Notes under the pieces: model-generated
The model's database searches: none
Told to the model about the DNA's origin: nothing
Seen by the model: the letters and a program-made list of their open reading frames with translations, nothing else
Made by a program: the position numbers and the translations under genes
Shown: positions 8,265-10,031 of the stretch, in pieces
How the letters are laid out: each line of letters opens with the position of its first letter
How positions within the stretch are numbered: the stretch's first letter is position 1
Virus record (IMG/VR): IMGVR_UViG_2690315994_000016
Location: 1 to 27,303 of that record
Origin: a virus
Taxonomy: Duplodnaviria; Heunggongvirae; Uroviricota; Caudoviricetes
DNA length: 27,303 bases
Strand: one strand, 5' to 3'

Positions 8265-10031
8265 ATGAACACCACACTGACACCCGCAGATCTCGATCCC
8301 CGTCGGCAGGCCATGCTGCTGTACTTTCAGGGATACCGCGTAGCCCGCATTGCTGAAATGCTGGGCGAGAAAGTTGCAACCGTTCACAGCTGGAAAAAAC
8401 GCGACAAGTGGGGTGACTATGGGCCGCTGGATCAGATGCAGCTCACCACCGCCGCCCGCTACTGCCAGCTCATTATGAAGGAGCACAAAGAAGGGAAAGA
8501 TTTCAAAGAAATTGACCTGCTGGCGCGCCAGTCGGAGCGCCACGCGCGGATCGGCAAGTTTAACAATGGCGGCAACGAAGCCGACTTAAACCCTAACGTC
8601 GCCAACCGCAACAAAGGGCCGCGCCGTCAGCCGGAAAAGAATGTTTTCACCGATGAACAGATTGAGAAGCTGGAAGAAATCTTCCATTCCTCCATGTTCA
8701 ACTACCAGCGCCACTGGTGGGAAGCCGGAAAAACCAATCGCATCCGCAACCTGCTGAAGTCTCGCCAGATCGGCGCGACCTTTTACTTTGCCCGTGAAGC
8801 CCTGATTGACGCCCTGCTGACCGGACGTAACCAGATTTTCCTTTCCGCCAGTAAGGCACAGGCCCACGTCTTTAAGCAGTACATCATCGACTTCGCCAAA
8901 GAAGTCGAGGTGGAGCTGAAAGGCGATCCGATGGTGCTTCCTAACGGGGCCACGCTTTACTTCCTCGGCACCAATGCCCGCACGGCCCAGAGTTACCACG
9001 GCAACCTGTATCTGGATGAATATTTCTGGATACCGAAATTCCAGGAGCTGCGCAAAGTGGCTTCCGGTATGGCTATTCACAAAAAATGGCGACAAACCTA
9101 TTTTTCCACGCCATCCAGCCTGACACACAGTGCTTATCCGTTCTGGTCCGGTGCGCTGTTCAACCGAGGGCGCAACAAAGCCGATAAGGTGGACATCGAC
9201 CTGTCCCACAGCAATCTGGCCCCCGGCCTGCTGTGCGCAGACGGGCAGTACCGCCAGATAGTCACCGTGGAAGATGCGGTGCGCGGCGGCTGTAACCTGT
9301 TCGACCTTGACCAGTTGCGCATGGAGTACAGCCCGGACGAATACCAGAACCTGCTGATGTGCGAGTTCGTGGACGATCTCGCGTCCGTGTTCCCGCTCAG
9401 CTAGCTGCAGGCGTGCATGGTGGACAGTTGGGAAGTCTGGACCGACTTTCATGCACTGGCCCTGCGCCCGTTTGGCTGGCGCGAAGTGTGGATCGGATAT
9501 GACCCGGCGAAAGGTACGCAGAACGGCGACAGCGCCGGATGCGTGGTGGTGGCGCCGCCAGCCGTGCCGGGCGGTAAGTTCCGCATTCTTGAGCGTCACC
9601 AGTGGCGCGGAATGGACTTCCGCGCCCAGGCTGACGCCATCAAAAAACTGACCGAACAGTACAACGTGACCTATATCGGTATCGACTCAACCGGCGTTGG
9701 TCACGGGGTTTACGAGAACGTGAAAGCGTTTTTTCCTGCCGTCCGGGAGTTTGTCTACAACCCCAACGTTAAAAACGCCCTGGTACTCAAGGCCTACGAC
9801 ATTATCAGCCACCGCCGTCTGGAGTTTGACGCCGGACACACCGACATAGCGCAGTCCTTTATGGCAATCCGTCGCGCCACCACCGCCAGTGGCAACCGCC
9901 CGACCTATGAAGCCAGCCGCAGCGAAGAAGCCAGCCACGCCGATCTGGCCTGGGCAACGATGCACGCACTGTTTAACGAACCGCTGCAGGGCGAATCCGC
10001 CAATACCAGCAATATTGTGGAGATTTTTTGA
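8265..10031 (+). pseudogene. P: Terminase ATPase (large) subunit P, interrupted by in-frame TAG at 9402..9404
   Basis: ORFs 8265..9404 and 9417..10031 are in the same frame separated only by TAG plus four sense codons; combined length ~587 codons equals full-length P2 gpP. Confidence 0.8.

Follow-up and report, generated by a model that had tools for sequence, protein, structure and literature searches.

A single amber codon (TAG) interrupts the large terminase gene P of a Cartapus/Fels-2-like prophage of the P2 family in the E. coli assembly GCA_001284825.1. We conclude that this codon very probably arose by a recent, spontaneous G-to-T change in the GAG codon for Glu380, disabling DNA packaging. 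The event is an ordinary, recent pseudogenisation, and is of a known kind. The stretch of DNA that we analysed (27,303 nt; hereafter the window) is the whole of draft contig CYBJ01000042.1 of this assembly, for which the source annotation gives the organism as E. coli (CTU06268.1). The features discussed below are listed in Table 1.

Table 1. Positions of the terminase gene, its two parts and other features of the prophage, and of the recurrent deletion endpoints in P of related remnants.
Feature	Position	Strand	Basis or remarks
Terminal 106 bp of an IS3-family insertion sequence, ending ...GGGGCGGTTCA; contig end	1..106	.	Annotated 'IS3 family transposase'; found at 24,794 places across 4,083 E. 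coli genomes
Baseplate gene I, first ~41 codons, cut by the IS end	107..231	-	Cartapus homology from 107 on
Large terminase gene, P2 gpP type, now a pseudogene	8265..10031	+	Amber at codon 380; gap-free against Cartapus and WEC
N-terminal ORF, 379 aa, HTH and ATPase domains, ends at the amber	8265..9404	+	ORF list, Pfam
Amber TAG from GAG (Glu380), G-to-T at 9402	9402..9404	+	Comparison with Cartapus, WEC and homologues
C-terminal ORF, 204 aa, interdomain linker and complete RNase-H-like nuclease domain	9417..10031	+	Pfam; gene callers
Portal gene Q	10031..11065	+	PF04860; Cartapus annotation; start overlaps the P stop as TGATG
DUF4145 protein	11074..11772	-	In the portal/cos hotspot; weak PD-T7-4 match
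Putative cos site	11875..11933	.	Equals Cartapus L001 23611-23669, annotated 'putative cos site'
ShosT/PsyrT-like gene	12173..12754	+	In the portal/cos hotspot
Anti-phage dCTP deaminase	20860..22617	-	Adjoins the integrase; NCBIfam 420 bits; PADLOC dCTPase E = 2e-146
First retained P base after deletion, first cluster	9135		Essentially no microhomology; four partners: tube gene (L014), D gene at two positions (L053, L161), E/FII region (L062)
First retained P base after deletion, second cluster	9341-9346		ATACC or TACC microhomology in 4/5 seen at the DNA level; six partners: T gene (two), D gene (two), tail-fibre genes (two)
First retained P base after deletion, third cluster	9391-9394		Microhomology of 2-6 nt; five partners: D gene (two), fibre gene, sheath gene, N-terminal part of P itself

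The window resembles P2-family phages and prophages throughout, with Escherichia phage Cartapus (NC_070909; LF82 prophage 4; Peduoviridae, Elveevirus) as the top phage match at 99.8%. In Cartapus, the same 1767 bases are annotated as a large terminase (YP_010663975.1) followed by a portal gene, and the 588-aa Cartapus terminase is colinear with the window gene without gaps (1763/1767 bases identical, i.e. four nucleotide differences). The gene lies in the same place in both, between the divergent scaffold gene O and portal gene Q, and gene order in the window is that of Cartapus and P2, with P divergent from O-N-M-L and followed by the overlapping gene Q. End-to-end alignment gave 64% identity with P2 gpP and 63% with the orf12 product of phage 186. 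Both of these proteins consist of the same three parts (HTH Terminase_5, Terminase_6N and Terminase_6C) and, in contrast to the window gene, which belongs to the Fels-2/Cartapus branch, are encoded by uninterrupted genes. Phage 186 (L043, NC_001317) has an extra 248-aa ORF on the minus strand (1215-1961) between its terminase and portal genes, with a Terminase_6N match of E = 3e-19; this ORF is absent from P2 and from the window. A sequence search returned no solved structure of a close homologue.

The preliminary description of this DNA had proposed that two ORFs in one frame, split by a single TAG, together make up a full-length P2-type terminase, and both sequence and translation agree with this proposal. 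The TAG lies in the context TTC CCG CTC AGC TAG CTG CAG GCG TGC ATG GTG GAC, and translation of the whole gene gives the peptide FPLS*LQACMVDSWEV across the stop. The 379-aa and 204-aa ORFs share a common frame, and reading through the stop yields 588 sense codons plus one internal stop, which align without gaps with the terminases of Cartapus, P2 and 186. In an intact homologue, Pfam places Terminase_5 at residues 11-68, Terminase_6N at 162-382 and Terminase_6C at 410-571. The 379-aa ORF includes the gpP-type HTH domain Terminase_5 (PF06056; residues 11-68, E = 2e-27) and covers residues 162-378 of Terminase_6N, the T4-type ATPase domain, and the 204-aa ORF includes Terminase_6C, the RNase-H-like nuclease domain, at its residues 26-187. 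By these Pfam boundaries, codon 380 falls at the end of Terminase_6N, ahead of the linker and the nuclease domain. All features of the P2 gpP-type terminase family are present save the uninterrupted frame: about 588-590 continuous codons are expected of a P2 gpP-type TerL, and here the frame is broken by TAG at codon 380. We therefore file the gene as a pseudogene of this family rather than as a functional member.

The 204-aa ORF starts at Met385, whose ATG at 9417 is the next in-frame ATG, 13 nt 3' of the stop. A weak AGG is found 6 nt upstream of this ATG, and gene callers accept the ORF as a gene of its own. DNA folding of the 90 nt around the stop was no better than that of shuffled controls (z-scores of 0.2 and -0.7), and there were no meaningful repeats around the stop. 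The G-to-T change at 9402 converts CAGCGAGCTG into a perfect 10-bp palindrome, CAGCTAGCTG (9398-9407), which holds an NheI site and CTAG. The palindrome is probably a curiosity, and templated quasi-palindrome correction is an unlikely source of it given the 2-nt centre.

We next consider the ancestral codon. Between the window and E. coli strain WEC, the terminase gene differs only at base 9402, which is G in WEC instead of T; hence, chance is no reasonable explanation for the match of the two ORFs to one terminase gene. Four more complete E. coli genomes have a BLAST score equal to that of WEC, which corresponds to one mismatch, and a gene identical to that of the window was found in none of 5,426 complete E. 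coli genomes. Three of the four differences from Cartapus lie in codons 214-217 (two synonymous, one D215E), and the fourth is at 9402. Alignment with intact P2 and 186 terminases, which the preliminary description had suggested as a way to find the original codon, placed Glu at this position in both; the codon itself is GAG in Cartapus, phage 813R9 and WEC. Among 15 species-representative genomes, codon 380 is GAG, GAA, GAC, CTG or ATG, and across 120 metagenome loci it is GAG in 87, GAA in 15, ATG in 14 and CTG in 4, with no stop. Residue 380 is variable across the wider family (E, D, L, M). Judged from these comparisons, the ancestral codon is GAG (Glu380), and the change is a G-to-T transversion.

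The match to P was continuous in all 15 species representatives, two of which are cut by a contig or locus end. One continuous, full-length P gene was present in 84 of the 120 metagenome loci; the rest (24 censored by the locus or contig end, 12 not full length) were never interrupted by a stop codon. The preliminary description had held that the TAG is a nonsense mutation and not a gene boundary, and had named homologues naturally split here as the observation that would speak against this. We looked for such homologues and found no stop or split at codon 380 among about 150 homologous loci. A natural gene boundary or split terminase was rejected because no homologue is split at this point. 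We also rejected programmed readthrough or recoding, because the stop is confined to this contig and one matching run and the folding is unremarkable. An exact search with the TAG-bearing 43-mer found no match in GTDB representative genomes or IMG/VR.

A 14.3-kb Logan contig, assembled independently from run ERR137783, matches window 78-14386 base for base, including the T at 9402, and also carries the IS junction; this support is at the level of assemblies, and ERR137783 may be the same run that lies behind the deposited assembly. The presence of the same T in an independent assembly makes an assembly artefact unlikely. Moreover, the Logan contig has no branch at 9402, indicating that no competing base is well represented in the run. 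A systematic base-calling error at 9402 is unlikely. We found no papers naming the run, the contig or the assembly.

Exact look-up of the 379-aa product returned 57 blocks and 45 contigs. We rejected the possibility that the TAG allele is widespread, since at eight of the ten places listed the gene is wild-type and the contig runs out within codon 380: G or GA follows codon 379 in L006, L007 and L010, and L013 stops at codon 379. Among these ten places, TAG is found only in the window (L004) and in L005. The other loci (L006-L013) come from unrelated assemblies whose contigs end in codon 380, at positions equivalent to window 9401-9403, with P wild-type. Some contig ends in codon 380 fit a common GAG/GAA polymorphism at 9404 that breaks assembly graphs, whereas the ends at 9401 and 9402 do not.

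In the mechanism that we propose, translation would stop at the end of the ATPase domain and release a 379-residue fragment consisting of the HTH and ATPase domains. The nuclease domain would either not be made, or be made apart, as 204 residues, by re-initiation at Met385. Cos cutting and head filling would fail, rare readthrough aside, and output of portal gene Q may drop via polarity; the overlap between the start of Q and the stop of P would expose Q to polarity from an upstream nonsense codon. Packaging depends on a single portal-docked chain that contains both the ATPase and the nuclease, and neither cos cutting nor head filling is therefore expected of this prophage. The window allele resembles the laboratory Pam amber mutants of classical P2 genetics, which have nonsense mutations in P and on non-suppressing hosts fail to package DNA, leaving heads unfilled. 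The laboratory mutants were obtained by mutagenesis and selection and were propagated on suppressor hosts; by contrast, the window allele arose naturally in the resident prophage of a wild isolate. Packaging should be lost, Q may be subject to polarity, and the host presumably has no suppressor. There are no tRNA genes, and hence no suppressor tRNA, in the 27,303-nt window. On its own, the nuclease domain of T4 gp17 has about 13-fold lower activity than full-length gp17, and shows neither ATP stimulation nor small-subunit inhibition (PMC3074133), indicating that linkage to the ATPase domain matters. Since residue 380 is variable and lies in the linker, a readthrough product would probably be active. 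Low-level leakiness through readthrough is possible, and a nuclease domain made by re-initiation at Met385 might act in trans.

Over 11.8 kb of late genes (window 107-11933), the window and Cartapus are 99.87% identical without gaps; the 16 differences comprise nine synonymous, four missense, two intergenic and one nonsense change. Cartapus undergoes spontaneous induction, with DNase-protected (encapsidated) genomes at about 3e5 per mL (PMC9928086). Cartapus thus has GAG at codon 380, an intact terminase gene, and releases encapsidated genomes, whereas the window gene has TAG together with one conservative change, D215E. The near-identity to an active phage indicates that the amber is a recent event in an element that worked as a phage shortly before. 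The remaining prophage genes on the contig are as long as their counterparts in intact relatives, and there are no frameshifts. The 59-bp putative cos stretch differs from that of Cartapus by two G-to-A changes, at 11914 and 11930. Directly beyond the prophage, 23008-27278 holds a second integrase (PRK09692 type), then a TIGR04141-family protein and then the His-Xaa-Ser repeat protein HxsA; this segment looks like a separate integrative island beside the P2-like element.

The preliminary description had also cited a tail truncation in calling the prophage defective. As stated, the truncation was not borne out: the window is a whole contig ending in IS copies, one of which has its end against codon ~41 of gene I. 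The two contig termini (1-106 and 27202-27303) are inverted copies of the same IS3-family terminus and are 98% identical; the right copy abuts the HxsA-like gene. Window 107 corresponds to L001 11843 in Cartapus, where gene I occupies L001 11362-11967, and the 54-aa product at the left end of the window matches Tail_P2_I. Both contig ends thus lie in IS repeats, and a further contig, on the far side of the IS, may carry the tail genes and the remainder of I; it is also possible that these were deleted, or moved by IS-IS inversion. The IS in gene I is a second inactivating lesion beside the amber in P. Two independent inactivating lesions make a defective prophage likely; hence, the prophage is probably defective, as had been claimed, with the amber in P and the IS in gene I, rather than a tail truncation, as the grounds.

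The exact 204-aa C-terminal ORF is called separately on 170 contigs, which are P2-like remnants with internal deletions and not amber alleles. We mapped junctions in the loci with this ORF, in proteins from homology searches, and in the 120 metagenome loci, which had been picked regardless of gene calls. Metagenome loci lacking a continuous P have deletions or IS insertions. Endpoints in P recurred in three clusters (Table 1), in loci L014-L023, L039, L041, L053, L062, L130, L134 and L161; other endpoints were scattered, at 8967, 9022, 9318, 9399, 9407, 9425-9432, and 9470 to about 9510. In the 5,426 complete genomes, 9405-9464 is held at only about 10 more places than 9286-9345, and only three junction types were found. 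In the low-coverage metagenome contig L060 (1-2430), chromosomal genes for glycosyltransferase and UDP-glucose dehydrogenase adjoin P, which is present from 8967 on, suggesting that the deletion took the left arm of the prophage plus host DNA.

Judging deletion mechanisms from the junction sequences alone, we rejected DNA-invertase (gix-like) crossover, because the junctions do not fall within a core dinucleotide and half-sites are poorly matched; Chi-limited RecBCD resection, because Chi-like motifs are in inconsistent orientation; IS-adjacent deletion, because, apart from an IS2-like insertion in L142, the junctions retain no IS; and P2 A-protein pseudo-origins, because the retained segment does not fit. 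A universal preference for the 204-aa fragment was likewise rejected, as C-terminal fragments span 120-356 aa. Local DNA folding was unremarkable. That independent deletions share endpoints points either to strong selection or to a process that breaks or joins DNA at specific sites. The third cluster is 9 nt to the left of the amber codon, a nearness that we regard as coincidence.

Other explanations of the TAG have to be weighed against a recent inactivating mutation. If the true base at 9402 were G, through a sequencing or consensus error, the terminase would be intact. The T is a single-base difference in a draft Illumina-era assembly, and is found in no other complete E. coli genome, viral contig or GTDB representative genome; however, the unbranched Logan contig from ERR137783 has the same T, and elsewhere the contig shows no frameshifts or further suspect lesions. 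Substitution errors in a consensus at normal coverage are very rare, and we consider such an error here to be highly improbable. It is also very unlikely that the base is real and the split gene still functions, with separate domains made through re-initiation at Met385 or with the amber read through or suppressed. A functional split would be consistent with the position of the stop, exactly between the Pfam ATPase and nuclease domains, with the lack of conservation of residue 380 in the wider family, and with an ATG at 9417 that follows an AGG and is accepted by gene callers. By contrast, none of the about 150 loci has a split or stop here, the allele is known only from this contig and one matching run, the window supplies no suppressor tRNA, and the IS in gene I means that there is no sign of selection for a working prophage. 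Judging by the T4 data, moreover, the nuclease is properly regulated only when the domains are covalently linked (PMC3074133).

Inactivation might instead have been selected rather than neutral, with the host benefiting from loss of the ATPase half while the nuclease ORF, portal gene and defence cargo are kept; the amber would then be the point-mutation version of the deletions in other remnants. That gene calls on 170 contigs list the exact 204-aa ORF as a gene of its own, with many remnants keeping the 3' part of P, Q and the adjacent defence hotspot, would fit this explanation, as would the anti-phage dCTP deaminase and ShosT/PsyrT-like genes of the window prophage. We nonetheless regard it as extremely improbable: fragments from the C-terminal side of P also come in many other sizes (120-356 aa), the remnants are rare and add only about 10 places in 5,426 complete genomes, and the ORF is without an obvious promoter after the deletions. 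The finding of an identical protein with synonymous-only differences follows from the use of an exact-match look-up, and such differences could also stem from selection predating the deletions. A broader form of the idea, in which P is disabled repeatedly where ATPase and nuclease meet, perhaps through selection or in a site-directed way, and the amber is one such case, seems to us highly doubtful. If true, it would tie the amber to the reused deletion endpoints 9-60 nt upstream in other remnants, and the free nuclease-domain ORF together with the portal gene could interfere when P2-like phages or satellites that enter the cell package their DNA.

P2-like prophages commonly contain pseudogenes, and in defective members the defence genes stay intact (PMC13586616). 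The window prophage is similar to the defective P2-like prophages with defence cargo described there, in that mobility is likewise inactivated and the defence genes (dCTP deaminase, ShosT-like) are intact. Compared with those elements, however, it is very early in decay, with two lesions visible and all other contig genes intact. The amber itself matters little, and the reused deletion endpoints in P may merit a study of their own. We conclude that the window prophage cleanly illustrates how prophage decay begins: a single nonsense codon and a single IS insertion have struck an element that is otherwise near-identical to an active phage. Prophage predictors would call this element intact, although it is very probably unable to package DNA, and its defence genes, the dCTP deaminase and the ShosT-like gene, would then be fixed in the host.
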